A stretch of 64,000 nt of DNA from Eledone cirrhosa (Eukaryota). Below, one piece after another: positions 2,446-64,000 of the stretch. Below the pieces are notes generated by a model. It was not told where the DNA came from. It made no database searches and saw only the letters and a program-made list of their open reading frames with translations. Each line of letters starts with the position of its first letter. Position 1 is the first letter of the stretch. Both the position numbers and the translations under genes were made by a program. The stretch spans positions 317,254,001 to 317,318,000 of the forward strand of contig OZ024742.1 in the NCBI GenBank assembly GCA_964016885.1, written 5' to 3'.

Positions 2446-2600
2446 GAATGGGTGTGGTAAGATACCAGTTGGACCATAACGCACCAGAGTACTCAATACT
2501 TAGGGTATTAGAATGGGTAATAGGAAAACATTCAGCACCCCGACGGCTGAGCTCCCGCCGTATCGGAGCTCAGCCGCCGGTGTCCTAACTCTCTTCCTAT
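2443..2600 (-). mobile_element. Fold-back element family F1, reverse copy
   Basis: Carries the reverse complement of the F1 tail (ggaccataacgcaccagagtactcaatacttagggta) and an imperfect hairpin at ~2519-2600. TA-rich flanks. Confidence 0.7.
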
Positions 2601-2764
2601 ATACATATATATACAAGTTATATATTAATATATATTATGAACACAAACGTGTTTGTATTGTAAGAGACAAAGTTAGCTAGCATGAAATAAACTAATTAAA
2701 GTGAATACAATTTGTCTGTCTCGATATAAGTCAATAAAGACAAGCTTATATTGGCAAAAGCCGT

Positions 2765-2940
2765 GATTCCTGGACAAATTTAAATTTCAAAATCCAAACC
2801 CGCTCCGTAGATGAATTTGACCTTCGAAACCCAAATATGTTTCGCAACGATGGTACATGAATTGAAAAATAAAGAGAATCGAAATGGAATTGAAATAAAA
2901 AGTGAAATATCCAAATCTTCTGTGCTTATCAACAGGAATC
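2765..2940 (-). ncRNA. Type I hammerhead ribozyme, U3:A8 core variant, intact GAAA
   Basis: Minus strand: GATTCCTG-TTGATAA-GCAC...GTTGC-GAAA-long stem III-GTC-CAGGAATC. Perfect 8-bp stem I and GUC cleavage triplet. Confidence 0.7.
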
Positions 2941-3736
2941 CAGTAAAATTAGTACATTCCACCTTCAAACATTTTGCAGGTCTGATTACACGTGGTGTAG
3001 CCAGCTATACTAGCCATCCCGTATTCCCGGTGCTAGAAATAACAGCCGTTTATACGGGATTAAAGATCAGCTCTACAGTTAAGGAGCAATATACTATATT
3101 ATATTTAGAGATTAAACTCATAGTCGTTTACAATTAATCAGCTCAAAGAAAGAGGCATTTCTGAGCAGTGAAATACAAGTTATATATTAATATATATGAT
3201 CAACACAAACGTGTTTGTATTTCAATTCCATTTCGATTCTCTTTATTTTTCAATTCATGTACCATCGTTGCGAAACATATTTGGGTTTCGAAGTTCAAAT
3301 TCATCTACGGAGCGGGTTTGGATTTTGAAATTTAAATTTGTCCAGGAATCACGGCTTTTGCCAATATAAGCTTGTCTTTATTGACTTATATCGAGACAGA
3401 CAAATTGTATTCACTTTAATTAGTTTATTTCATGCTAGCTAACTTTGTCTCTTACAATACAAACACGTTTGTGTTCATCATATATATTAATATATAACTT
3501 GTATTTCACTGCTCAGAAATGCCTCTTTCTTTGAGCTGATTAATTGTAAACGACTATGAGTTTAATCTCTAAATATAATATAGTATATTGCTCCTTAACT
3601 GTAGAGCTGATCTTTAATCCCGTATAAACGGCTGTTATTTCTAGCACCTGGAATACGGGATGGCTAGTATAGCTGGCTACACCACGTGTAATCAGACCTG
3701 CAAAATGTTTGAAGGTGGAATGTACTAATTTTACTG

Positions 3737-3912
3737 GATTCCTGTTGATAAGCACAGAAGATTTGGATATTTCACTTTTTATTTCAATTCCATTTCGATT
3801 CTCTTTATTTTTCAATTCATGTACCATCGTTGCCCAACATATTTGGGTTTCGAAGTTCAAATTCATCTACGGAGCGGGTTTGGATTTTGAAATTTAAATT
3901 TGTCCAGGAATC
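3737..3912 (+). ncRNA. Hammerhead copy with GAAA changed to CCAA (predicted inactive)
   Basis: Same architecture as 2765-2940, with CCAA at 3834-3837. Confidence 0.65.
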
Positions 3913-4298
3913 ACGGCTTTTGCCAATATAAGCTTGTCTTTATTGACTTATATCGAGACAGACAAATTGTATTCACTTTAATTAGTTTATTTCATGCTAG
4001 CTAACTTTGTCTCTTACAATACAAACACGTTTGTGTTCATCATATATATTAATATATAACTTGTATTTCACTGCTCAGAAATGCCTCTTTCTTTGAGCTG
4101 ATTAATTGTAAACGACTATGAGTTTAATCTCTAAATATAATATAGTATATTGCTCCTTAACTGTAGAGCTGATCTTTAATCCCGTATAAACGGCTGTTAT
4201 TTCTAGCACCTGGAATACGGGATGGCTAGTATAGCTGGCTACACCACGTGTAATCAGACCTGCAAAATGTTTGAAGGTGGAATGTACTAATTTTACTG

Positions 4299-4474
4299 GA
4301 TTCCTGTTGATAAGCACAGAAGATTTGGATATTTCACTTTTTATTTCAATTCCATTTCGATTCTCTTTATTTTTCAATTCATGTACCATCGTTGCCCAAC
4401 ATATTTGGGTTTCGAAGTTCAAATTCATCTACGGAGCGGGTTTGGATTTTGAAATTTAAATTTGTCCAGGAATC
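4299..4474 (+). ncRNA. Hammerhead copy with GAAA changed to CCAA (predicted inactive)
   Basis: Same sequence as 3737-3912, offset by +562. Confidence 0.65.
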
Positions 4475-4860
4475 ACGGCTTTTGCCAATATAAGCTTGTC
4501 TTTATTGACTTATATCGAGACAGACAAATTGTATTCACTTTAATTAGTTTATTTCATGCTAGCTAACTTTGTCTCTTACAATACAAACACGTTTGTGTTC
4601 ATCATATATATTAATATATAACTTGTATTTCACTGCTCAGAAATGCCTCTTTCTTTGAGCTGATTAATTGTAAACGACTATGAGTTTAATCTCTAAATAT
4701 AATATAGTATATTGCTCCTTAACTGTAGAGCTGATCTTTAATCCCGTATAAACGGCTGTTATTTCTAGCACCTGGAATACGGGATGGCTAGTATAGCTGG
4801 CTACACCACGTGTAATCAGACCTGCAAAATGTTTGAAGGTGGAATGTACTAATTTTACTG

Positions 4861-5036
4861 GATTCCTGTTGATAAGCACAGAAGATTTGGATATTTCACT
4901 TTTTATTTCAATTCCATTTCGATTCTCTTTATTTTTCAATTCATGTACCATCGTTGCCCAACATATTTGGGTTTCGAAGTTCAAATTCATCTACGGAGCG
5001 GGTTTGGATTTTGAAATTTAAATTTGTCCAGGAATC
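4861..5036 (+). ncRNA. Hammerhead copy with GAAA changed to CCAA (predicted inactive)
   Basis: Same sequence as 3737-3912, offset by +1124. Confidence 0.65.
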
Positions 5037-5373
5037 ACGGCTTTTGCCAATATAAGCTTGTCTTTATTGACTTATATCGAGACAGACAAATTGTATTCAC
5101 TTTAATTAGTTTATTTCATGCTAGCTAACTTTGTCTCTTACAATACAAACACGTTTGTGTTCATCATATATATTAATATATAACTTGTATTTCACTGCTC
5201 AGAAATGCCTCTTTCTTTGAGCTGATTAATTGTAAACGACTATGAGTTTAATATCTAAATATAATATAGGACATATATATATATATATATATATATAACC
5301 AAATATTAATATGGTTCGTTGATTATTCAACTAATGGAATTTTACAATAGATTAGAAGCACTAGACAGATGGT

Positions 5374-5603
5374 TTATTCAAAATATTAATAAATGAAAAA
5401 TATTCTCTTAATCAAAATATATATTTTATTATACATATTTCAAAGGTACAATGGTGTTTATGTAAGTTTTCATGTCGCATATCAAATCTTATATTTTGTC
5501 TGATGAAAGCGTACTTAAACACCATTGTACCTTTGAAATATGTATAATAAAATATATATTTTGATTATGAGAATATTTTTCATTTATTAATATTTTGAAT
5601 AAT
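5374..5603. repeat. ~100-bp inverted repeat fold-back element, family F2
   Basis: ttattcaaaatattaataaatg...ggtacaatggtgtttatgtaagttttcat (5374-5473) is the near reverse complement of 5503-5603. Confidence 0.85.
5490..5556 (+). ncRNA. Minimal type I hammerhead ribozyme (Penelope-type)
   Basis: TATATTTTGT-CTGATGA-AAGCGTAC..GTACCTTT-GAAA-T-ATGT-ATA-ATAAAATATA: canonical core, 10-bp stem I, 8-bp stem II with one mismatch, AUA cleavage site. Confidence 0.7.
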
Positions 5604-6561
5604 ATATATATAACGGCGATGAATTAGTTTTGCGAGGTTTTTTATATGAAATCGTGTGTCGAAACAAATATTGTTATACTTGGTGAGATGGCGCAGGCAT
5701 ACAATACAACAGGAGGAAACATAATAGCACCACTGACGATGTTGCAGATGTGCAACGAAAGAACTTTGTTAGACTATATATATGTCTTTGCGTCTATATT
5801 ACATCTGTATTTTTGACCGTTGGTCAGTCAATGATAACATTGAGGACCGAATAAATTAAATTAACCGATATAAAAGATAGAGAAGCGAAAACCAACCAAA
5901 CAGTGAGTGTGTTCTGTTATTAATTCTGGCAATATTACACAAATATGACCCTCCCCAAGTATAACAATATATATATATATATATATTTATTAATCACAGT
6001 TGATTGGACCCAGCAATCCACTAAATAAAGTGTAATCCATCATAAGCACTCCACATCATGTGTTCCATAAGGTATTGCGTATGGAATGGCACTACCAACG
6101 CATCTCGCTTACGATCCTCCGGGAAAACACCTTCTCCATTCTCTCTGCCGGGGCTGTGGGGCGTTCAGCACGTGGGACCCCATTTGCTCACTATACAGAG
6201 AAATGGGGGCGATGACGGTGGGAGTTCGGCTCTTCCGTGTTCGGACATATTACACCTGTCATGTAGATCATGTGATAATTTCAGAAAGGTTAAAGCATCT
6301 TTATAGCATCTAATACATTATGTCTATGTTTTACCATTTAAAACCATTTCCTCGTGCATTGCGTATATAGTATCAGACGGAGTATCAATATTAAGAAAGA
6401 AGACGAGAAATGGTTTCACATATTCAACATTAGTTTATTATCCTTACATCACATCTGATATATACATTAAAAATACATTAGAATGCCATTATGTAATAGT
6501 TATTTAATATGTTGTCGGCAAACAGCATTTGAAAATGTAAGCATTATTCTGTCTTTGTTTT

Positions 6562-6806: not shown

Positions 6807-7125
6807 ATATATATACGTTTTTTTTTTATTATTCAACAGGAAGTGACCAGTCAACCTGAAACATTTTTTTAGATTTCCTTTCAGTTCTTCCGCTTCTTTG
6901 TTTTCTCTTTTCTTAATCTACTTTGATAAACATATATAAACCAAGACTTCAGATCAATTCTCTTTCTATTCGGCGTAGACATATTCAGTTTACACACATT
7001 GTTCAAAATTGTCTCCATCTATTTTGTCAACAACGTATCTTTTTTTCCCCCAACGTTTCACTTTCCCTTGTTTTCTGTTTTAAGCTTTAGTTGTTTACTT
7101 TCCTATCGAGTAAAATACGTCTGAA

Positions 7126-10097: not shown

Positions 10098-10128
<31 letters not shown>

Positions 10129-10135
<7 letters not shown>

Positions 10136-10435
10136 GAAAACGAAAAATCAGTGATGCATCGGAACTCAATTTATTGTGTGTTACAATTATTGTGTGTTAC
10201 AGAAAGAGGATGCGCTCCGAAATCAATAGACGTGTCCGAGGAACCTGCGAGTCTAGAGTCAGGTAGCTCCACACACGGATCGCACCTCGCCGGGGAAACA
10301 ATTGTAACATACAATAAATTGAGTTCCGATACATCACTAATTTTTCTTTTTCCATTCTATAATACTCTGCTCCGTAGGAGCATAGAGTGCTCAACCGGCA
10401 TACCGCCTATGGAAGCATCTTAGCTACCCTTAGAC
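10129..10435 (+). mobile_element. Fold-back element in (TA)n with a hammerhead 3' half
   Basis: ~60-bp inverted repeat 10129-10188/10299-10360, internal hairpin gaggatgcgctccg/cggatcgcacctc, GAAAC-AATT-GTA motif, unique tail. Confidence 0.6.
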
Positions 10436-10786: not shown

Positions 10787-13500
<2,714 letters not shown>

Positions 13501-13949: not shown

Positions 13950-14346
<397 letters not shown>

Positions 14347-14463: not shown

Positions 14464-14478
14464 TATATATATATATAT

Positions 14479-14655
14479 AGGAAAAGAGTCAGGACCCCCA
14501 CGGCTGAACTCCGGCCGTTTCGACAGCTAGCTCGGATCTAGCTGTCGAAACGACCGTAGCTCAGCCGTCGGGGTCCTAACCCACTCTACTACCCTAAGTA
14601 TCGAGTAATCAGGTGCGCTATGTTCCACCTGGTTTTTTATCACACCTTCTTTGTT
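14479..14655 (+). mobile_element. Fold-back element family F1, third copy
   Basis: Hairpin centred on gacagctag/ctagctgtc, then GAAAC-GACC-GTA and the F1 tail ccactctactaccctaagtatcgagta. Confidence 0.7.
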
Positions 14656-48274: not shown

Positions 48275-51200
48275 GATGATGAGAAGGGGGAGATGGTGGC
48301 TGAGGTGATGACTACGATGATGGCTATGACAAGATAATGAGAAGGGGGGAGATGGTGGCTGAGGTGATGACTACGATGATGGCTATGACAAGATAATGAG
48401 AAGGGGGGAGATGGTGGCTGAGGTGATGACTACGATGATGGCTATGACATGTTAATGAGAAGGGGGGAGATGGTGGCTGAGGTGATGACTACGATGATGG
48501 CTATGACATGTTAATGAGAAGGGGGATGGTGGCTGAAGTGATGACTACGATGATGGCTATGACAAGATAATGAGAAGGGGGGAGATGGTGGCTGAGGTGA
48601 TGACTACGATAATGGTTATGACAAGATAATGAGAAGGGGGGAGATGGTGGCTGAGGTGATGACTACGATGATGGCTATGACAAGATAATGAGAAGGGGGA
48701 GATGGTGGCTGAGGTGATGACTACGATGATGGCTATGACAAGATAATGAGAAGGGGAGATGGTGGCTGAAGTGATGACTACGATGATGGCTATGACAAGA
48801 TAATGAGAAGGGGGGAGATGGTGGCTGAGGTGATGACTACGATGATGGCTATGACATGTTAATGAGAAGGGGAGATGGTGGCTGAAGTGATGACTACGAT
48901 GATGGCTATGACAAGATAATGAGAAGGGGGAGATGGTGGCTGAGGTGATGACTACGATAATGGTTATGACAAGATAATGAGAAGGGGGGAGATGGTGGCT
49001 GAGGTGATGACTACGATGATGGCTATGACAAGATGATGAGAAGGGGGGAGATGGTGGCTGAGGTGATGACTACGATGATGGCTATGACAAAGGGATGAGA
49101 AGGGGGAGATGGTGGCTGAAGTGATGACTAAGATGATGGCTATGACAAGATGATGAGAGAGGGGGGCCTGAAGTGATGACTAAGATGATGGCTATGACAA
49201 AGGGATGAGAAGGGGGAGATGGTGGCTGAAGTGATGACAAAGATGATGGCTATGACAAGATGATGAGAAGGGGGAGATGGTGGCTGAAGTGATGACTAAG
49301 ATGATGGCTATGACAAGATGATGAGAAGGGGGGATGGTGGCTGAAGTGATGACTAAGATGATGGCTATGACAAGATGATGAGAAGGGGGGATGGTGGCTG
49401 AAGTGATGACTAAGATGATGGCTATGACAAGATGATGAGAAGGGGGGATGGTGGCTGAAGTGATGACTAAGATGATGGCTATGACAAGATGATGAGAAGG
49501 GGGGGGCTGAAGTGATGACTACGATGATGGCTATGACAAAAGGATGAGAAGGGGGGAGATGGTGGCTGAGGTGATGACTACGATAATGGTTATGACAAGA
49601 TAATGAGAAGGGGGGAGATGGTGGCTGAAGTTATGACTACGATGATGGCTATGACAAGATGATGAGAAGGGGGAGATGGTGGCTGAAGTGATGACTACGA
49701 TGATGGTTATGACAAAAGGATGAGAAGGGGGGAGATGGTGGCTGAGGTGATGACTACGATGATGGCTATGACAAGATGATGAGAAGGGGGGATATGGTGG
49801 CTGAGGTGATGACTAACATGATGGCTATGACAAGATGATGTGAAGGGTGGAGATGGTGGCTGAGGTGATGACTAGCATGATGGCTATGACAAGATGATGA
49901 GAAGGGGGGAGATGGTGGCTGAGGTGATGACTACGATGATGGCTATGACAAAGGGATGAGAAGGGGGGAGATGGTGGCTGAAGTGATGACTACGATGAAG
50001 GCTATGACAAAAGGATGAGAAGGGGGGAGATGGTGGCTGAGGTGATGACTACGATGATGGCTATGACAAAGGGATGAGAAGGGGGGAGATGGTGGCTGAA
50101 GTGATGACTACGATGATGGCTATGACATGTTAATGAGAAGGGGGAGATGGTGGCTGAGGTGATGACTACGATGATGGCTATGACAAGATGATGAGAAGGG
50201 GGGAGATGGTGGCTGAGGTGATGACTACGATGATGGCTATGACAAAGGGATGAGAAGGGGGGAGATGGTGGCTGAAGTGATGACTACGATGATGGCTATG
50301 ACATGTTAATGAGAAGGGGGGAGATGGTGGCTGAGGTGATGACTACGATGATGGCTATGACAAGATAATGAGAAGGGGGGAGATGGTGGCTGAGGTGATG
50401 ACTACGATGATGGCTATGACATGTTAATGAGAAGGGGGATGGTGGCTGAAGTGATGACTACGATGATGGCTATGACAAGATAATGAGAAGGGGGGAGATG
50501 GTGGCTGAGGTGATGACTACGATAATGGTTATGACAAGATAATGAGAAGGGGGGAGATGGTGGCTGAGGTGATGACTACGATGATGGCTATGACAAGATA
50601 ATGAGAAGGGGGAGATGGTGGCTGAGGTGATGACTACGATGATGGCTATGACAAGATAATGAGAAGGGGAGATGGTGGCTGAAGTGATGACTACGATGAT
50701 GGCTATGACAAGATAATGAGAAGGGGGGAGATGGTGGCTGAGGTGATGACTACGATGATGGCTATGACATGTTAATGAGAAGGGGAGATGGTGGCTGAAG
50801 TGATGACTACGATGATGGCTATGACAAGATAATGAGAAGGGGGAGATGGTGGCTGAGGTGATGACTACGATAATGGTTATGACAAGATAATGAGAAGGGG
50901 GGAGATGGTGGCTGAGGTGATGACTACGATAATGGTTATGACAAGATAATGAGAAGGGGGGAGATGGTGGCTGAGGTGATGACTACGATGATGGCTATGA
51001 CAAGATAATGAGAAGGAGGAGATGGTGGCTGAGGGGATGACTACGATGATGGCTATGACAAGATAATGAGAAGGGGAGATGGTGGCTGAGTGATGACTAC
51101 GATGATGGCTATGACAAGATAATGAGAAGGGGGGAGATGGTGGCTGAGGTGATGACTACGATGATGGCTATGACATGTTAATGAGAAGGGGAGATGGTGG

Positions 51201-54200
51201 CTGAGGTGATGACTACGATGATGGCTATGACAAGATAATGAGAAGGGGGAGATGGTGGCTGAGGTGATGACTACGATAATGGTTATGACAAGATAATGAG
51301 AAGGGGGGAGATGGTGGCTGAGGTGATGACTACGAAGAGGGCTATGACAAGATGATGAGAAGGGGGGAGATGGTGGCTGAGGTGATGACTACGATGATGG
51401 CTATGACAAAGGGATGAGAAGGGGGAGATGGTGGCTGAAGTGATGACTAAGATGATGGCTATGACAAGATGATGAGAAGGGGGGGGCTGAAGTGATGACT
51501 AAGATGATGGCTATGACAAAGGGATGAGAAGGGGGAGATGGTGGCTGAAGTGATGACAAAGATGATGGCTATGACAAGATGATGAGAAGGGGGAGATGGT
51601 GGCTGAAGTGATGACTAAGATGATGGCTATGACAAGATGATGAGAAGGGGGGATGGTGGCTGAAGTGATAACTAAGATGATGGCTATGACAAGATGATGA
51701 GAAGGGGGAGATGGTGGCTGAAGTTATGACTACGATGATGGCTATGACAAGATGATGAGAAGGGGGAGATGGTGGCTGAAGTGATGACTACGATGATGGC
51801 TATGACAAGATGATGAGAAGGGGGGATATGGTGGCTGAGGTGATGACTAACATGATGGCTATGACAAGATGATGTGAAGGGTCGAGATGGTGGCTGAGGT
51901 GATGACTAAAATGATGGCTATGACAAGATGATGAGAAGGGGGAGATGGTGGCTGAGGTGATGACTACGATGATGGCTATGACAAAGGGATGAGAAGGGGG
52001 GAGATGGTGGCTGAAGTGATGACTACGATGAAAGCTATGACAAAAGGATGAGAAGGGGGGAGATGGTGGCTGAGGTGATGACTACGATGATGGCTATGAC
52101 AAAGGGATGAGAAGGGGGGAGATGGTGACTGAAGTGATGACTACGATGATGGCTATGACATGTTAATGAGAAGGGGGGAGATGGTGGCTGAGGTGATGAC
52201 TACGATGATGGCTATGACAAGATGATGAGAAGGGGGGAGATGGTGGCTGAGGTGATGACTACGATGATGGCTATGACAAAGGGATGAGAAGGGGGGAGAT
52301 GGTGGCTGAAGTGATGACTACGATGATGGCTATGACATGTTAATGAGAAGGGTGGAGATGGTGGCTGAGGTGATGACTACGATGATGGCTATGACAAGAT
52401 GATGAGAAGGGGGGAGATGGTGGCTGAGGTGATGACTACGATGATGGCTATGACAAAGGGATGAGAAGGGGGGAGATGGTGGCTGAAGTGATGACTACGA
52501 TGATGGCTATGACATGTTAATGAGAAGGGGGGAGATGGTGGCTGAGGTGATGACTACGATGATGGCTATGACAAGATGATGAGAAGGGGGGAGATGGTGG
52601 CTGAGGTGATGACTACGATGATGGCTATGACAAAGGGATGAGAAGGGGGGAGATGGTGGCTGAAGTGATGACTACCATGATGGCTATGACATGTTAATGA
52701 GAAGGGGGGAGATGGTGGCTGAGGTGATGACTACGATGATGGCTATGACAAGATGATGAGAAGGGGGGAGATGGTGGCTGAGGTGATGACTACGATGATG
52801 GCTCTGACAAAGGGATGAGAAGGGGGGAGATGGTGGCTGAAGTGATGACTACGATGATGGCTATGACATGTTAATGAGAAGGGGGGAGATGGTGGCTGAG
52901 GTGATGACTACGATGATGGCTATGACAAGATGATGATAAGGGGGGAGATGGTGGCTGAGGTGATGACTACGATGATGGCTATGACAAAGGGATGAGAAGG
53001 GGGAGATGGTGGCTGAAGTGATGACTACGATAATGGTTATGACAAGATAATGAGAAGGGGGGAGATGGTGGCTGAGGTGATGACTACGATGATGGCTATG
53101 ACAAGATGATGATAAGGGGGGAGATGGTGGCTGAGGTGATGACTACGATAATGGTTATGACAAGATAATGAGAAGGGGGGAGATGGTGGCTGAGGTGATG
53201 ACTACGATAATGGTTATGACAAGATAATGAGAAGGGGGGAGATGGTGGCTGAGGTGATGACTACGATGATGGCTATGACAAGATAATGAGAAGGAGGAGA
53301 TGGTGGCTGAGGGGATGACTACGATGATGGCTATGACAAGATAATGAGAAGGGGAGATGGTGGCTGAGTGATGACTACGATGATGGCTATGACAAGATAA
53401 TGAGAAGGGGGGAGATGGTGGCTGAGGTGATGACTACGATGATGGCTATGACATGTTAATGAGAAGGGGAGATGGTGGCTGAGGTGATGACTACGATGAT
53501 GGCTATGACAAGATAATGAGAAGGGGGAGATGGTGGCTGAGGTGATGACTACGATAATGGTTATGACAAGATAATGAGAAGGGGGGAGATGGTGGCTGAG
53601 GTGATGACTACGAAGAGGGCTATGACAAGATGATGAGAAGGGGGGAGATGGTGGCTGAGGTGATGACTACGATGATGGCTATGACAAAGGGATGAGAAGG
53701 GGGAGATGGTGGCTGAAGTGATGACTAAGATGATGGCTATGACAAGATGATGAGAAGGGGGGGGCTGAAGTGATGACTAAGATGATGGCTATGACAAAGG
53801 GATGAGAAGGGGGAGATGGTGGCTGAAGTGATGACAAAGATGATGGCTATGACAAGATGATGAGAAGGGGGAGATGGTGGCTGAAGTGATGACTAAGATG
53901 ATGGCTATGACAAGATGATGAGAAGGGGGGATGGTGGCTGAAGTGATGACTAAGATGATGGCTATGACAAGATGATGAGAAGGGGGAGATGGTGGCTGAA
54001 GTTATGACTACGATGATGGCTATGACAAGATGATGAGAAGGGGGAGATGGTGGCTGAAGTGATGACTACGATGATGGCTATGACAAGATGATGAGAAGGG
54101 GGGATATGGTGGCTGAGGTGATGACTAACATGATGGCTATGACAAGATGATGTGAAGGGTCGAGATGGTGGCTGAGGTGATGACTAAAATGATGGCTATG

Positions 54201-57200
54201 ACAAGATGATGAGAAGGGGGAGATGGTGGCTGAGGTGATGACTACGATGATGGCTATGACAAAGGGATGAGAAGGGGGGAGATGGTGGCTGAAGTGATGA
54301 CTACGATGAAAGCTATGACAAAAGGATGAGAAGGGGGGAGATGGTGGCTGAGGTGATGACTACGATGATGGCTATGACAAAGGGATGAGAAGGGGGGAGA
54401 TGGTGACTGAAGTGATGACTACGATGATGGCTATGACATGTTAATGAGAAGGGGGGAGATGGTGGCTGAGGTGATGACTACGATGATGGCTATGACAAGA
54501 TGATGAGAAGGGGGGAGATGGTGGCTGAGGTGATGACTACGATGATGGCTATGACAAAGGGATGAGAAGGGGGGAGATGGTGGCTGAAGTGATGACTACG
54601 ATGATGGCTATGACATGTTAATGAGAAGGGGGGAGATGGTGGCTGAGGTGATGACTACGATGATGGCTATGACAAGATGATGAGAAGGGGGGAGATGGTG
54701 GCTGAGGTGATGACTACGATGATGGCTATGACAAAGGGATGAGAAGGGGGGAGATGGTGGCTGAAGTGATGACTACGATGATGGCTATGACATGTTAATG
54801 AGAAGGGGGGAGATGGTGGCTGAGGTGATGACTACGATGATGGCTATGACAAGATGATGAGAAGGGGGGAGATGGTGGCTGAGGTGATGACTACGATGAT
54901 GGCTATGACAAAGGGATGAGAAGGGGGGAGATGGTGGCTGAAGTGATGACTACCATGATGGCTATGACATGTTAATGAGAAGGGGGGAGATGGTGGCTGA
55001 GGTGATGACTACGATGATGGCTATGACAAGATGATGAGAAGGGGGGAGATGGTGGCTGAGGTGATGACTACGATGATGGCTCTGACAAAGGGATGAGAAG
55101 GGGGGAGATGGTGGCTGAAGTGATGACTACGATGATGGCTATGACATGTTAATGAGAAGGGGGGAGATGGTGGCTGAGGTGATGACTACGATGATGGCTA
55201 TGACAAGATGATGATAAGGGGGGAGATGGTGGCTGACGTGATGACTACGATGATGGCTATGACAAAGGGATGAGAAGGGGGAGATGGTGGCTGAAGTGAT
55301 GACTACGATGAAGGCTATGACAAAAGGATGAGAAGGGGGGAGATGGTGGCTGAGGTGATGACTACGATGATGGCTATGACAAAGGGATGAGAAGGGGGAG
55401 ATGGTGGCTGAAGTGATGACTACGATGATGGCTATGACAAAAGGATGAGAAGCGGGGAGATGGTGGCTGAGGTGATGACTACGATGAAGGCTGTGACAAA
55501 AGGATGAGAAGGGGGAGATGGTGGCTGAGGTAATGACTACGATGATGGCTATGACAAAAGGATGAGAAGGGGGGAGATGGTGGCTGAGGTGATGACTACG
55601 ATGATGGCTATGACAAAAGGATAAGAAAGGGGAGATGGTGGCTGAGGTGATGACTACGATGATGGCTATGACAAAAGGATGAGAAGGGGGGAGATGGTGG
55701 CTGAGGTGATGACTACGATGATGGCTATGACAAAAGGATGAGAAAGGGGAGATGGTGGCTGAGGTGATGACTACGATGATGGCTATGACAAGATGATTAG
55801 AAGGGGCGATATGGTGGCTGAGGTGATGACTAAAATGATGGCTATGACAAGATGATGAGAAGGGGGAGATGGTGGCTGAGGTGATGACTACGATGATGGC
55901 TATGACAAGATGATTAGAAGGGGCGATATGGTGGCTGAGGTGATGACTAAAATGATGGCTATGACAAGATGATGAGAAGGGGGAGATGGTGGCTGAGGTG
56001 ATGACTACGATGATGGCTATGACAAGATGATGAGAAGGGGGAGATGGTGGCTGAGGTGATCACTGCGATGATGGCTATGACAAAAGTATGAGAAGGGAGC
56101 AGATGGTGGCTGAAGTGATGACTACGATGATTGCTATGACAAAAGGATGAGAAGGGGGAGATGATGGCTGAAGTGATGACTACGATGATTGCTATGACTT
56201 AAGGATGTGAAGGGGGGATATGGTGGCTGAAGTGATGACTACGATGATTGCTATGACAAAACGATGAAAAGGGGGGATATGGTGGCTGAAGTGATGACTA
56301 CGATGATTGCTATGACAAAGGGATGTGAAGGGAGGAGATGGTGGCTGAAGTGATGACTACGATGATTGCTATGACTTAAGGATGAGAAGGGAGGTGATGG
56401 TGGCTGAAGTGATGACTGATTATTGCTATGACAAAGGGATGAGAAGGGGGGAGATGGTGGCTGAGGTGATGACTACGATGATGGCTATGACAAAGGGAGG
56501 AGAAGGGGGATATGGTGGCTGAAGTGATGACTACGATGATTGCTATGACAAAAGGATGTGAAGGGAGGAGATGGTGGCTGAAGTGATGACTACGATGATT
56601 GCTATGACTTAAGGATGTGAAGGGAGGAGATGGTGGCTGAAGTGATGACTACGATGATGGCTATGACAAAAGGATGAGAAGGGAGGAGATGGTGGCTGAA
56701 GTGATGACTACGATGATTGCTATGACAAAAGGATGAGAAGGGGGGAGATGGTGGCTGGATTGATGACTATGATGATTGCTATGACAAAAGGATGAGAAGG
56801 GGGGATATGGTGGCTGAAGTGATGACTACGATGATGGCTATGATAAAAGGATGAGAAGGGAGGAGATGGTGGCTGAAGTGATGACTATGATGATTGCTAT
56901 GACAAAAGGATGAGAAGGGAGGAGATGGTGGCTGAAGTGATGACTAAGATGATGGCTATGACAAGATGATGAGAAGGGGGGATGGTGGCTGAAGTGATGA
57001 CTAAGATGATGGCTATGACAAGATGATGAGAAGAGGGAGATGGTGGCTGAAGTGATGACTACGATGATTGTTATGACAAAAGGATGAGAAGGGAGGAGAT
57101 GGTGGCTGAAGTGATGACTACGATGATTGCTATGACTTAAGGATGTGAAGGGAGGAGATGGTGGCTGAAGTGATGACTACGATGATTGCTATGACTTAAG

Positions 57201-60200
57201 GATGTGAAGGGAGGAGATAGTGGCTGAAGTGTTGACTACGATGATTGCTATGACTTAAGGATGTGAAGGGAGGAGATGGTGGCTGAAGTGATGACTACGA
57301 TGATGGCTATGACAAAAGGATGTGAAGGGAGGAGATGGTGGCTGAAGTGATGACTACGATGATTGCTATGACTTAAGGATGTGAAGGGGGGATATGGTGG
57401 CTGAAGTGATGACTATGATGATTGCTATGACAAAAGGATGAGAAGAGAGGAGATGGTGGCTGAAGTGATGACTACGATGATTGCTATGACTTAAGGATGT
57501 GAAGGGAGGAGATGGTGGCTGAAGTGATGACTACGATGATGGCTATGACTTAAGGATGTGAAGGGAGGAGATGGTGGCTGAAGTGATGACTACGATGATG
57601 GCTATGACAAAAGGATGTGAAGGGAGGAGATGGTGGCTGAAGTGATGACTACGATGATTGCTATGACTTAAGGATGTGAAGGGGGGATATGGTGGCTGAA
57701 GTGATGACTACGATGATGGCTATGACAAAACGATGATAAGGGAGGAGATGGTGGCTGAAGTGATGACTACGATGATGGCTATGACAAAACGATGAGAAGG
57801 GAGGAGATGGTGGCTGAAGTGATGACTACGACGATTGCTATGACAAAAGGATGAGAAGGGAGGAGATGGTGGCTGAAGTGATGACTACGATGATGGCTAT
57901 GACTTAAGGATGTGAAGGGGGATATGGTGGCTTAAATGTTGACTACGATGATTGCTATGACTTAAGGATGTGAAGGGAGGAGATGGTGGCTGAAGTGATG
58001 ACTACGATGATGGCTATGACTTAAGGATGTGAACGGAGGAGATGGTGGCTGAAGTGATGACTACGATTATTGCTATGACTTAAGGATGTGAAGGGAGGAG
58101 ATGGTGGCTGAGGTGATGACTACGATGATGGCTATGACATGTTAATGAGAAGGGGAGATGGTGGCTGAAGTGATGACTACGATGATGGCTATGACAAGAT
58201 AATGAGAAGGGGGGAGATGGTGGCTGAGGTGATGACTACGATAATGGTTATGACAAGATAATGAGAAGGGGGGAGATGGTGGCTGAGGTGATGACTACGA
58301 TGATGGCTATGACAAGATGATGAGAAGGGGGGAGATGGTGGCTGAGGTGATGACTACGATGATGGCTATGACAAAGGGATGAGAAGGGGGAGATGGTGGC
58401 TGAAGTGATGACTAAGATGATGGCTATGACAAGATGATGAGAAGGGGGGGGATGGTGGCTGAAGTGATGACTAAGATGATGGCTATGACAAAGGGATGAG
58501 AAGGGAGAGATGGTGGCTGAAGTGATGACAAAGATGATGGCTATGACAAGATGATGAGAAGGGGGAGATGGTGGCTGAAGTGATGACTAAGATGATGGCT
58601 ATGACAAGATGATGAGAAGGGGGGATGGTGGCTGAAGTGATGACTAAGATGATGGCTATGACAAAATGATGAGAAGGGGGAGATGGTGGCTGAAGTTATG
58701 ACTACGATGATGGCTATGACAAGATGATGAGAAGGGGGAGATGGTGGCTGAAGTGATGACTACGATGATGGCTATGACAAGATGATGAGAAAGGGGGATA
58801 TGGTGGCTGAGGTGATGACTAACATGATGGCTATGACAAGATGATGTGAAGGGTGGAGATGGTGGCTGAGGTGATGACTACGATGATGGCTATGACAAAG
58901 GGATGAGAAGGGGGGAGATGGTGGCTGAAGTGATGACTACGATGAAGGCTATGACAAAAGGATGAGAAGGGGGGAGATGGTGCCTGAGGTGATGACTACG
59001 ATGAAGGCTATGACAAAAGGATGAGAAGGGGGAGATGGTGGCTGAGGTGATGACTACGATGATGGCTATGACAAAAGGATGAGAAGGGGGGAGATGGTGG
59101 CTGAGGTGATGACTACGATGATGACTATGACAAAAGGATGAGAAAGGGGAGATGGTGGCTGAGGTGATGACTACGATGATGGCTATGACAAAAGGATAAG
59201 AAGGGGGGAGATGGTGGCTGAGGTGATGACTACGATGATGGCTATGACAAGATGATGTGAAGGGTGGAGGTGGTGGCTGAGGTGATGACTACGATGATTG
59301 CTATGACTTAAGGATGTGAAGGGAGGAGATGGTGGCTGAAGTGATGACTACGATGATGGCTATGACAAGATGATTAGAAGGGGGAGATGGTGGCTGAGGT
59401 GATGACTACGATGATGGCTATGACAAGATGATGAGAAGGAGGAGATGGTGGCTGAGGTGATGACTACGATGATGGCTATGACAAAAGGATGAGAAGGGAG
59501 GAGATGGTGGCTGAAGTGATGACTACGATGATTGCTATGACAAAAGGATGAGAAGGGGGAGATGGTGGCTGAAGTGATGACTACGATGATTGCTATCACT
59601 TAAGGATTTGAAGGGGGGATATGGTGGCTGAAGTGATGACTACGATGATTGCTATGACAAAACGATGAAAAGGGGCGATATGGTGGCTGAAGTGATGACT
59701 ACGATGATTGCTATGACAAAGGGATGTGAAGGGAGGAGATGGTGGCTGAAGTGATGACTACGATGATTGCTATGACTTAAGGATGAGAAGGGAGGTGATG
59801 GTGGCTGAAGTGATGACTATGATGATTGCTATGACAAAGGGATGAGAAGGGGGGAGATGGTGGCTGAGGCGATGACTACGATGATGGCTATGACAAAGGG
59901 AGGAGAAGGGGGATATGGTGGCTGAAGTGATGACTACGATGATTGCTATGACAAAAGGATGTGAAGGGAGGAGATGGTGGCTGAAGTGATGACTACGATG
60001 ATTGCTATGACTTAAGGATGTGAAGGGAGGAGATGGTGGCTGAAGTGATGACTACGATGATGGCTATGACAAAAGGATGAGAAGGGAGGAGATGGTGGCT
60101 GAAGTGATGACTACGATGATTGCTATGACAAAAGGATGAGAAGGGGGGAGATGGTGGCTGGATTGATGACTATGATGATTGCTATGACAAAAGGATGAGA

Positions 60201-63200
60201 AGGGAGGAGATGGTGGCTGAAGTGATGACTATGATGATTGCTATGACAAAAGGATGAGAAGGGAGGAGATGGTGGCTGATGTGATGACTAAGATGATGGC
60301 TATGACAAGATGATGAGAAGGGGGGATGGTGGCTGAAGTGATGACTAAGATGATGGCTATGACAAGATGATGAGAAGGGGGAGATGGTGGCTGAAGTGAT
60401 GACTACGATGATTGCTATGACAAAAGGATGAGAAGGGAGGAGATGGTGGCTGAAGTGATGACTACGATGATTGCTATGACTTAAGGATGTGAAGGGAGGA
60501 GATGGTGGCTGAAGTGATGACTACGATGATTGCTATGACTTAAGGATGTGAAGGGAGGAGATAGTGGCTGAAGTGATGACTACGATGATTGCTATGACTT
60601 AAGGATGTGAAGGGAGGAGATGGTGGCTGAAGTGATGACTACGATGATGGCTATGACAAAAGGATGTGAAGGGAGGAGATGGTGGCTGAAGTGATGACTA
60701 CGATGATTGCTATGACTTAAGGATGTGAAGGGGGGATATGGTGGCTGAAGTGATGACTACGATGATTGCTATGACAAAAGGATGAGAAGAGAGGAGATGG
60801 TGGCTGAAGTGATGACTACGATGATTGCTATGACTTAAGGATGTGAAGGGAGGAGATGGTGGCTGAAGTGATGACTACGATGATGGCTATGACTTAAGGA
60901 TGTGAAGGGAGGAGATGGTGGCTGAAGTGATGACTACGATGATGGCTATGACAAAAGGATGTGAAGGGAGGAGATGGTGGCTGAAGTGATGACTACGATG
61001 ATTGCTATGACTTAAGGATGTGAAGGGGGGATATGGTGGCTGAAGTGATGACTACGATGATGGCTATGACAAAACGATGAGAAGGGAGGAGATGGTGGCT
61101 GAAGTGATGACTACGATGATGGCTATGACAAAACGATGAGAAGGGAGGAGATGGTGGCTGAAGTGATGACTACGACGATTGCTATGACAAAAGGATGAGA
61201 AGGGAGGAGATGGTGGCTGAAGTGATGACTACGATGATGGCTATGACTTAAGGATGTGAAGGGAGATATGGTGGCTGAAATGATGACTACGATGATTGCT
61301 ATGACTTAAGGATGTGAAGGGAGGATATGGTGGCTGAAGTGATGACTACGATGATGGCTATGACTTAAGGATGTGAAGGGAGGAGATGGTGGCTGAAGTG
61401 ATGACTACGATGATGGCTATGACTTAAGGATGTGAAGGGAGGAGATGGTGGCTGAAGTGATGACTACTATGATTGCTATGACTTAAGGATGTGAAGGGAG
61501 GAGATGGTGGCTGAAGTGATGACTACGATGATTGCTATGACTTAAGGATGTGAAGGGAGGAGATGGTGGCTGAAGTGATGACTACGATGATTGCTATGAC
61601 TTAAGGATGTGAAGGGAGGAGATGGTGGCTGAAGTGATGACTACGATGATTGCTATGACTTAAGGATGTGAAGGGGGGATATGGTGGCTGAAATGATGAC
61701 TACGATGATTGCTATGACTTAAGGATGTGAAGGGAGGAGATGGTGGCTGAAGTGATGACTACGATGATTGCTATGACTTAAGGATGTGAAGGGAGGAGAT
61801 GGTGGCTGAAGTGATGACTACGATGATGGCTATGACTTAAGGATGTGAAGGGGGGATATGGTGGCTGAAGTGATGACTACGATGATTGCTATGACTTAAG
61901 GATGTGAAGGGAGGAGATGGTGGCTGAAGTGATGACTACGATGATGGCTATGACTTAAGGATGTGAAGGGAGGAGATGGTGGCTGAAGTGATGACTACGA
62001 TGATGGCTATGACTTAAGGATGTGAAGGGAGGAGATGGTGGCTGAAGTGATGACTACGATGATTGCTATGACAAAAGGATGAGAAGGGGGGAGATGGTGG
62101 CTGGATTGATGACTATGATGATTGCTATGACAAAAGGATGAGAAGGGAGGAGATGGTGGCTGAAGTGATGACTATGATGATTGCTATGACAAAAGGATGA
62201 GAAGGGAGGAGATGGTGGCTGAAGTGATGACGACGATGATGGCTATGACAAGATGATGAGAAAGGGGGATATGGTGGCTGAGGTGATGACTAACATGATG
62301 GCTATGACAAGATGATGTGAAGGGTGGAGATGGTGGCTGAGGTGATGACTACGATGATGGCTATGACAAAGGGATGAGAAGGGGGGAGATGGTGGCTGAA
62401 GTGATGACTACGATGAAGGCTATGACAAAAGGATGAGAAGGGGGGAGATGGTGCCTGAGGTGATGACTACGATGAAGGCTATGACAAAAGGATGAGAAGG
62501 GGGAGATGGTGGCTGAGGTGATGACTACGATGATGGCTATGACAAAAGGATGAGAAGGGGGGAGATGGTGGCTGAGGTGATGACTACGATGATGACTATG
62601 ACAAAAGGATGAGAAAGGGGAGATGGTGGCTGAGGTGATGACTACGATGATGGCTATGACAAAAGGATAAGAAGGGGGGAGATGGTGGCTGAGGTGATGA
62701 CTACGATGATGGCTATGACAAGATGATGTGAAGGGTGGAGGTGGTGGCTGAGGTGATGACTACGATGATTGCTATGACTTAAGGATGTGAAGGGAGGAGA
62801 TGGTGGCTGAAGTGATGACTACGATGATGGCTATGACAAGATGATTAGAAGGGGGAGATGGTGGCTGAGGTGATGACTACGATGATGGCTATGACAAGAT
62901 GATGAGAAGGAGGAGATGGTGGCTGAGGTGATGACTACGATGATGGCTATGACAAAAGGATGAGAAGGGAGGAGATGGTGGCTGAAGTGATGACTACGAT
63001 GATTGCTATGACAAAAGGATGAGAAGGGGGAGATGGTGGCTGAAGTGATGACTACGATGATTGCTATCACTTAAGGATTTGAAGGGGGGATATGGTGGCT
63101 GAAGTGATGACTACGATGATTGCTATGACAAAACGATGAAAAGGGGCGATATGGTGGCTGAAGTGATGACTACGATGATTGCTATGACAAAGGGATGTGA

Positions 63201-64000
63201 AGGGAGGAGATGGTGGCTGAAGTGATGACTACGATGATTGCTATGACTTAAGGATGAGAAGGGAGGTGATGGTGGCTGAAGTGATGACTATGATGATTAC
63301 TATGACAAAGGCATGAGAAGGGGGGAGATGGTGGCTGAGGCGATGACTACGATGATGGCTATGACAAAGGGAGGAGAAGGGGGATATGGTGGCTGAAGTG
63401 ATGACTACGATGATTGCTATGACAAAAGGATGTGAAGGGAGGAGATGGTGGCTGAAGTGATGACTACGATGATTGCTATGACTTAAGGATGTGAAGGGAG
63501 GAGATGGTGGCTGAAGTGATGACTACGATGATGGCTATGACAAAAGGATGAGAAGGGAGGAGATGGTGGCTGAAGTGATGACTACGATGATTGCTATGAC
63601 AAAAGGATGAGAAGGGGGGAGATGGTGGCTGGATTGATGACTATGATGATTGCTATGACAAAAGGATGAGAAGGGAGGAGATGGTGGCTGAAGTGATGAC
63701 TATGATGATTGCTATGACAAAAGGATGAGAAGGGAGGAGATGGTGGCTGAAGTGATGACTAAGATGATGGCTATGACAAGATGATGAGAAGGGGGGATGG
63801 TGGCTGAAGTGATGACTAAGATGATGGCTATGACAAGATGATGAGAAGGGGGAGATGGTGGCTGAAGTGATGACTACGATGATTGCTATGACAAAAGGAT
63901 GAGAAGGGAGGAGATGGTGGCTGAAGTGATGACTACGATGATTGCTATGACTTAAGGATGTGAAGGGAGGAGATGGTGGCTGAAGTGATGACTACGATGA
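48275..64000. repeat. 58-59-bp satellite array, >15.7 kb (~270 monomers), running off the window
   Basis: Monomer gagaagggggg-agatggtggctga(g/a)gtgatgactacgatgat(g/t)gctatgac-(aagat/aaaag/ttaag/atgtt)-(a/g)at. Length varies mainly in the G-run. Confidence 0.98.

Follow-up and report, generated by a model that had tools for sequence, protein, structure and literature searches.

The two-base change that three tandem copies of a repeat share in the core of a hammerhead ribozyme was in all likelihood carried along as a commonplace passenger mutation while a retrozyme copy decayed, and reveals no new mechanism. The copies lie in the window, by which we mean the whole 64,000-nt stretch of Eledone cirrhosa DNA that was analysed and to which all positions refer. 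Neutral decay of the retrozyme copy, with one GA>CC mutation and subsequent local duplication at the DNA level, is in our judgement the probable history of the locus. The evidence comes from the layout of the repeats, the anatomy of the ribozyme motif, the family in public sequencing runs and the distribution of changes among the copies.

The locus comprises an inverted arm and a forward head-to-tail array of one 562-bp unit (33% GC), both inside (TA)n. The inverted arm (2611-3221, minus strand) holds one 562-nt unit with 49 nt of terminal redundancy, and its 3' end points left into the TA tract. The forward array (3218-5269, plus strand) contains about 3.65 units, and its 3' end adjoins (TA)n at 5273-5297; TA tracts flank both outer ends of the inverted and tandem insertion. 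The 5' ends of the two parts are joined over an exact overlap, or microhomology, of 4 nt at 3218-3221. Full tandem copies had been described as nearly alike in the initial annotation, and the three full units (3456-4017, 4018-4579 and 4580-5141) are indeed 100% identical. When the forward array is compared with itself at an offset of 562 nt, the sole differences are GA/CC and a C>A change at 5253 (plus strand) in the last partial unit, which is the only private substitution of the array. The amplified units carry a second common change, T at 3649, 4211 and 4773 (plus strand); G is the base of the inverted arm at this site and predominates in the family. Between the inverted arm and the forward unit six bases differ in five events (3201, 3028, 2843-2842, 2821 and 2636), and the overlapping ends of the inverted arm are unlike at 2 of 49 positions. 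A coding role of the unit was considered and rejected, as its longest stop-to-stop frame is just 108 aa, lies on the antisense strand, and no ORF is of note. The host is an animal genome with abundant AT microsatellites.

Positions previously given for the tetranucleotides are correct: GAAA is found at 2843-2840 on the minus strand (TTTC at 2840-2843 of the forward strand) and at 3272-3275, and CCAA at 3834, 4396 and 4958. The type I hammerhead fold places the changed bases at G12 and A13, as had been claimed, and adds a point absent from the initial annotation, namely that the core reads TTGATAA, with a U3-A8 pair, instead of CUGANGA. The sole complete hammerhead with an intact core at the locus lies in the inverted arm (2765-2940, minus strand). 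It consists of stem I (2940-2933/2772-2765), the core TTGATAA (2932-2926), stem II (2925-2923/2846-2844) and GAAA (2843-2840), and cleavage is predicted after C17 at 2773. The core bases of type I, UUGAUAA, GAAA and GUC with the U3-A8 covariation, are all present in this arm; in all three CC copies the core departs from them. The first segment of the forward array retains an orphan 3' half (3269-3350, plus strand) with GAAA at 3272-3275, stem III, GUC at 3340-3342 and the 3' strand of stem I, its 5' half having been lost at the inversion junction.

The first CC hammerhead, G12C/A13C, occupies 3737-3912 (plus strand) with CC at 3834-3835, and identical copies follow at 4299-4474 and 4861-5036 on the same strand. 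Its stem I (3737-3744/3905-3912) has 8 Watson-Crick pairs, the core lies at 3745-3751 and C17 at 3904. Stem II is a GCA/UGC helix (3752-3754/3831-3833) with the G10.1-C11.1 pair and encloses a 76-nt loop II. Stem III (3837-3864/3876-3903) has 28 positions, comprising 19 Watson-Crick pairs, 8 G-U pairs and one U-U; eight G-U pairs with zero A-C mismatch point to selection on the RNA strand. The U3-A8 pair is described as a natural covariation of the core that is active in vitro (PMC3088659), and passages of PMC4209133 report it in some 1,300 motifs of Schistosoma that were identified starting from a Penelope-like element (PLE). According to the part of PMC6155905 on catalysis, G12 is the general base of the hammerhead, and a loss of cleavage upon the G12 and A13 changes would be expected from that literature.

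Standard searches do not see this motif. Rfam gave no hammerhead at the gathering score in the window and none at E<=10 in 2500-6000; its output consisted of two tRNA-like matches in the window and one chance miRNA match in 2500-6000. The miss is probably due to the 76-nt loop II, which lies outside the Rfam hammerhead models. Likewise, a CUGANGA search together with a descriptor limited to loops of at most 60 nt returned no hammerhead in the 562-bp unit, and the resulting doubt about a ribozyme in the unit was given up after a descriptor admitted the U3-A8 core and long loops. This widened descriptor accepts every complementary 3-8 pair as well as loops of as many as 120 nt, and was widened after the motif had been seen. 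It matches in the inverted arm only, and the antisense strand gives no match. Of 3000 dinucleotide shuffles, one matched at the observed stem lengths, 10 matched when stem I was required to have 6 bp or more, and 199 matched at the loosest setting. Folding of the unit against shuffles gave z=-5.0 for the sense strand and z=-1.8 for the antisense strand. The fold of minimum energy pairs the core UUGA with a UCAA inside loop II, and the catalytic hammerhead fold lies 2.4 kcal/mol above it. Pairing probabilities are 0.95-1.0 for stem I, mostly above 0.75 for stem III and 0.01 for stem II. By its sequence this is a real yet atypical type I hammerhead motif, with cleavage as a prediction; that the atypical hammerhead of the family is active seems to us slightly more likely than not.

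Four of nine public runs (X1, X4, X5 and X7) were surveyed by comparison with one monomer. X1 yielded 445 matching contigs and X7 yielded 2014 matching reads, which covered all 30 bins and ranged in identity from below 90% to 99+%, and the unit belongs to a dispersed, high-copy and diverged family. Exact-pattern scans of metagenome contigs and viral contigs gave no match. At the positions equivalent to 3834-3835, GA was read in all 133 X7 reads (about 29 starts), in all 11 X1 contigs and in the single informative record of each of X4 and X5, and record 9 of X4, which has GA, extends over an entire hammerhead (3714-3930). The runs show that CC is not characteristic of the family. At 3649, G was found in 157 of 183 X7 reads and 4849 of 5077 of the X1 depth, and T is a minority allele of the family (26 of 183 X7 reads). 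The non-window allele is the only one in X1 at 3476 and 3707, and X7 has it in 141 of 148 and 6 of 7 reads, respectively. Because X1 entirely lacks the window alleles at these two positions, the runs are probably without this locus; therefore neither CC nor the copy number is read-confirmed, and the absence of CC there says little.

Outside the CC site, the 40 of 148 variant rows listed include three in loop II and none in either the core or stem II, a contrast that is not significant alone. Among the same rows, 3854 A>G in stem III retains its pair as G-U, and 3876 G>A breaks the last pair. The variant 3909 A>T makes up 57% of the X1 depth and 28 of 453 X7 reads and breaks a stem I pair unless compensated; no compensating row was present among the 40 of 148 listed. 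This variant counts against a uniformly active family. A joint of 3961 to 3400 (4 X1 contigs and 5 X7 reads) was considered as proof of intact arrays elsewhere and rejected, since it merely reflects copies continuing across an arbitrary cut. At a joint of 3438/3836, six X7 reads switch strand inside the unit, possibly as another inverted insertion of the family or as library chimeras. Behind 3668, both X1 and X7 repeatedly show a different sequence, which indicates a subfamily.

The initial annotation had left two routes to the array, amplification of the dead unit at the DNA level or survival and integration of a multimeric RNA made of non-cleavable units. The first of these is supported by the identical units, the common T3649, a deficit of private changes and a crossover simulation. 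Since there is no difference among the three CCAA units, and all have the second change at 3649, they descend from one mutation and not three. The forward array of about 2050 nt carries one private change, against three in the 611-nt inverted arm (exact conditional P=0.04, resting on four events); a Poisson P of 0.0005 for this deficit was dropped, as it treats the rate as known. With two units collapsed, the six events of the locus divide 3:3 over 924 and 611 nt, which matches expectation. We also simulated one forward arm of about 1.6 units with CC, T3649 and the change at 5253, followed by two unequal crossovers at uniform positions; the observed pattern, with GA first, CC three times, T three times and one private base, was recovered in 74,595 of 100,000 runs.

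That one of so few differences falls on the catalytic site had been called striking. This impression fades when the three CC copies are counted as one event; the chance of at least one core hit among the six events of the locus is 0.09-0.14, the value varying with the definition of the core. The change GA>CC also creates CCCAA, the reverse complement of a TTGGG 5 nt downstream and the longest such match among the nine possible double changes. It may have arisen from a short template switch; a 5-nt reverse-complement match is reached by 11.5% of all double substitutions in the unit.

The second route, in which non-cleavable units spare the multimeric RNA, finds no support at the locus. The inverted arm, with a complete GAAA hammerhead, reads through the cleavage site, and the first forward segment crosses the site with GAAA too. 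Since both arms cross the cleavage site with GAAA, and the motif of the inverted arm is complete, an intact core was no bar to integration. Selection for uncleavable multimers is unneeded because complete GAAA hammerheads integrate uncut here and elsewhere, as in X4 record 9, which spans the whole GA hammerhead. Uncut integration would be expected if the template were a ligated circle, as in the model outlined in parts of PMC4209133 and PMC7229834.

From these observations a history in four steps may be proposed. The unit would be a non-autonomous, non-coding animal (non-LTR) retrozyme, each 562-nt monomer of which carries a single type I hammerhead of atypical form. By analogy with the literature, arrays of the family would be transcribed, self-cleaved to monomers and circularised, and a Penelope-like reverse transcriptase/endonuclease would copy the circles into nicked (TA)n DNA. 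At this locus, two more-than-unit cDNAs were presumably joined 5'-to-5' over the 4-nt microhomology seen in the layout, each ending in an AT-rich stretch beside TA repeats, which would have left an inverted arm of 611 nt beside a forward arm some 1.6 units long, with GAAA in every copy. The sharing of alleles suggests that neutral decay followed, in which GA>CC arose in the single complete forward hammerhead, and G>T at 3649. Two unequal crossovers or slippages between overlapping repeats would then have duplicated the CC unit twice, and the knockout, as a passenger, would leave the forward array unable to free monomers in cis. A PLE ORF was not recognised by eye among ORFs of at least 150 aa in 1-48300, and the mobilising partner is unseen there.

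The DNA-amplification history is also compatible with a hammerhead that is vestigial in the family or a subfamily. The GAAA form would then be uncleaving too, GA>CC would cost nothing, and the unit would spread as a plain PLE-mobilised or satellite repeat. We hold this to be unlikely, in spite of several features that speak for it: the minimum-energy fold ties up the core, stem II has 3 bp around a 76-nt loop, a loop I-loop II contact is not recognisable and the 3909 variant is frequent. In addition, 8 of 9 tested Xenopus retrozyme dimers were uncleaved according to portions of 10.64898/2026.07.22.740005, and cleavage in vitro by PLE hammerheads is often weak in the experiments of PMC4209133 that concern them. 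However, all core bases, G10.1-C11.1, A15.1-U16.1 and GUC are present and the 3-8 pair is compensated, the catalytic fold is merely 2.4 kcal/mol over the minimum, and the 38 other rows among the 40 of 148 listed place no variant in the core or stem II and three in loop II, which is not significant alone. An artefact of assembly seems less probable still. By over-expansion or homogenisation, fewer true forward units (e.g. 1.6) could have become an array in which the assembler or polisher repeated one CC unit; CC would remain one event or, less likely, be a consensus error. The assembled sequence would then be indistinguishable from a genuine duplication. Three full units with zero differences, CC in 0 of 133 reads and 0 of 13 contigs, and the trouble that tandem and inverted PLE insertions are known to cause in assembly (a point made in part of 10.1101/2021.04.23.441226) all agree with such an artefact. 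However, the examined runs seem to lack this locus, so that the absence of CC has little weight, short-read polishing would be expected to draw CC toward the family GA, and the last unit retains its private base at 5253.

Two further explanations place the origin of the array at the RNA or cDNA stage. The array may have formed at insertion as a retro-copy of a donor array or by a switch between two RNA templates, without selection, the order being CC/T3649 for three laps and then GA. Circular templates are a proposed source of more-than-unit cDNA in the relevant passages of PMC4209133 and PMC7229834, and T3649 is known elsewhere as a minority allele; but a single circular template would put CC in every lap, 3272 included. 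The two arms have in common alleles seldom or never found in the reads of the family (C at the equivalent of 3476 and G at 3707), which indicates one template lineage, and the 2 of 49 differences between the ends of the inverted arm indicate changes during or after insertion, yet the forward array holds one. We regard this explanation as very improbable. Selection at the RNA level, in which core-dead units keep the multimeric transcript whole so that it is preferentially reverse-transcribed and integrated, we believe to be even more so. It would account for the change of exactly G12 and A13 in all three complete forward hammerheads, and how hammerheads spare retrozyme circles is an open point in the discussion of PMC7229834. 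Against it, GAAA was integrated uncut in the inverted arm, in the first forward segment (through GUC 3340-3342) and in X4 record 9; GA is found in 133 of 133 reads, and CC is a single event at a locus with a 9-14% chance of a core hit. Moreover, a circle made only of CC units would not be releasable in cis, so that the RNA route would require an earlier CC donor array and hence DNA-level amplification anyway. We attach hardly any weight to a more elaborate reading, in which the Rfam-invisible hammerhead is switchable, the UCAA of loop II shutting the core, and arrays are enriched for core-dead units. Uncleavable multimers would then be better substrates for retrotransposition or better tolerated by the host, and this enrichment part is unlikely.

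On the preferred history of decay and local duplication, the knockout is one neutral hit that was multiplied locally, and it warns against scoring identical tandem units as independent events. The locus also provides a natural pair of intact and dead hammerheads. Since neither Rfam nor short-loop descriptors pick up this hammerhead, families of its kind may be under-represented in retrozyme censuses.

Other elements were noticed in the window, several of them in or beside TA tracts. A second TA-tract family has three copies (1159-1380, 2453-2600 and 14477-14652) that are 74-85% alike; each starts with an inverted duplication and shows GAAA, a stem and UC. These copies resemble a type I hammerhead reduced to its 3' half, the CUGAUGA half being absent, and look like 5'-inverted PLE-type ends. 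Directly to the right of the TA tract of the array, a structure at 5374-5602 that is present once in the window has 100-bp arms that are 96% complementary around a 29-nt spacer, with a CTGATGA box from 5500 at the border of spacer and arm. A minimal PLE-type hammerhead core at 5733-5762 is made up of CTGACGA, an additional base, a 6-bp stem closed by a 4-nt loop, and GAAA; the descriptor found no convincing stem I for it. By eye, CTGAAGACGG beside TA repeats at about 7110-7120 (plus strand) and about 11339-11350 (minus strand) is like the 5' halves of minimal hammerheads.

Two 213-bp elements in TA tracts, at 10842-11054 (minus strand) and 14133-14345 (plus strand), are 97% identical and each contain a tRNA-like gene (Rfam RF00005, 39-41 bits); they are probably a young tRNA-derived repeat. 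A further TA-tract element at 10127-10365 has long imperfect terminal inverted repeats and is about 70% self-complementary. The SINE-like repeats of the host may resemble octopus SINEs. Between about 24500 and 46100, several non-LTR retrotransposons in a decayed state are clustered on both strands, with an ORF1 carrying a CCHC knuckle and an ORF2 with endonuclease- and RT-like motifs, which we take by these motifs to be Tx1/L1-like. A 59-bp satellite of about 269 copies (92% matches) with a strong G/C strand skew occupies 48278-64000 and reaches the end of the window.

Among known systems, the unit can be compared with the non-LTR retrozymes of metazoans, as portrayed in sections of Cervera and de la Pena 2020 (PMC7229834) and of Li, Clavereau and Pollet 2026 (10.64898/2026.07.22.740005). 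It shares with them a non-coding tandem unit that is poor in GC (33%) and has one type I hammerhead, a high copy number, a self-paired sense strand and arrays of few units; in the latter work, 75% of retrozyme families have at most 7 units. Its 562 nt exceed the invertebrate circles of roughly 170-400 nt described in PMC7229834 and fall within the 51-972 bp range given in 10.64898/2026.07.22.740005. The hammerheads differ: that of our unit combines U3-A8 with a loop II of 76 nt and a long stem III, and the metazoan retrozymes of these sources have a short palindromic stem III. Two consecutive complete hammerheads define an active retrozyme in 10.64898/2026.07.22.740005, whereas the single intact motif of this locus is that of the inverted arm; of the 9 retrozyme dimers from Xenopus that were assayed there, 1 cleaved. 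The same source, in the parts on origin, derives retrozymes from the pLTRs of PLEs and names unequal crossover as a route of local amplification. Our search of the literature, which covered main texts and a minority of subscription papers, found nothing on this family or on an enrichment of core mutations in retrozyme arrays, and the high-copy family is apparently undescribed so far.

With PLE hammerheads the motif shares the type I topology, the U3-A8 pair (Schistosoma) and the G10.1-C11.1 pair, and its large helix III resembles that of fungal and protist PLE hammerheads. Compared with the minimal hammerhead, it has a stem I of 8 bp, a stem II of 3 bp, no extra base between 9 and 10.1, a very long loop II and no attached RT-EN ORF. 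The insertion differs from those of PLEs, as presented in part of Craig et al. 2021 (10.1101/2021.04.23.441226), in that its outer ends differ by 79 nt, against a tail of 30-40 bp in PLE insertions, and in that it repeats a whole non-coding monomer. It agrees with them in the partial tandem and the adjacent inverted, 5'-truncated copy, in the inverted repeats at both outer ends, in the microsatellite target and in the lack of a discernible target duplication. By unit anatomy, copy number and insertion layout the family is non-LTR retrozyme-like, with RNA circles predicted, and the inverted-plus-tandem, TA-targeted layout of such a unit fits the proposed mobilisation of retrozymes by PLEs.
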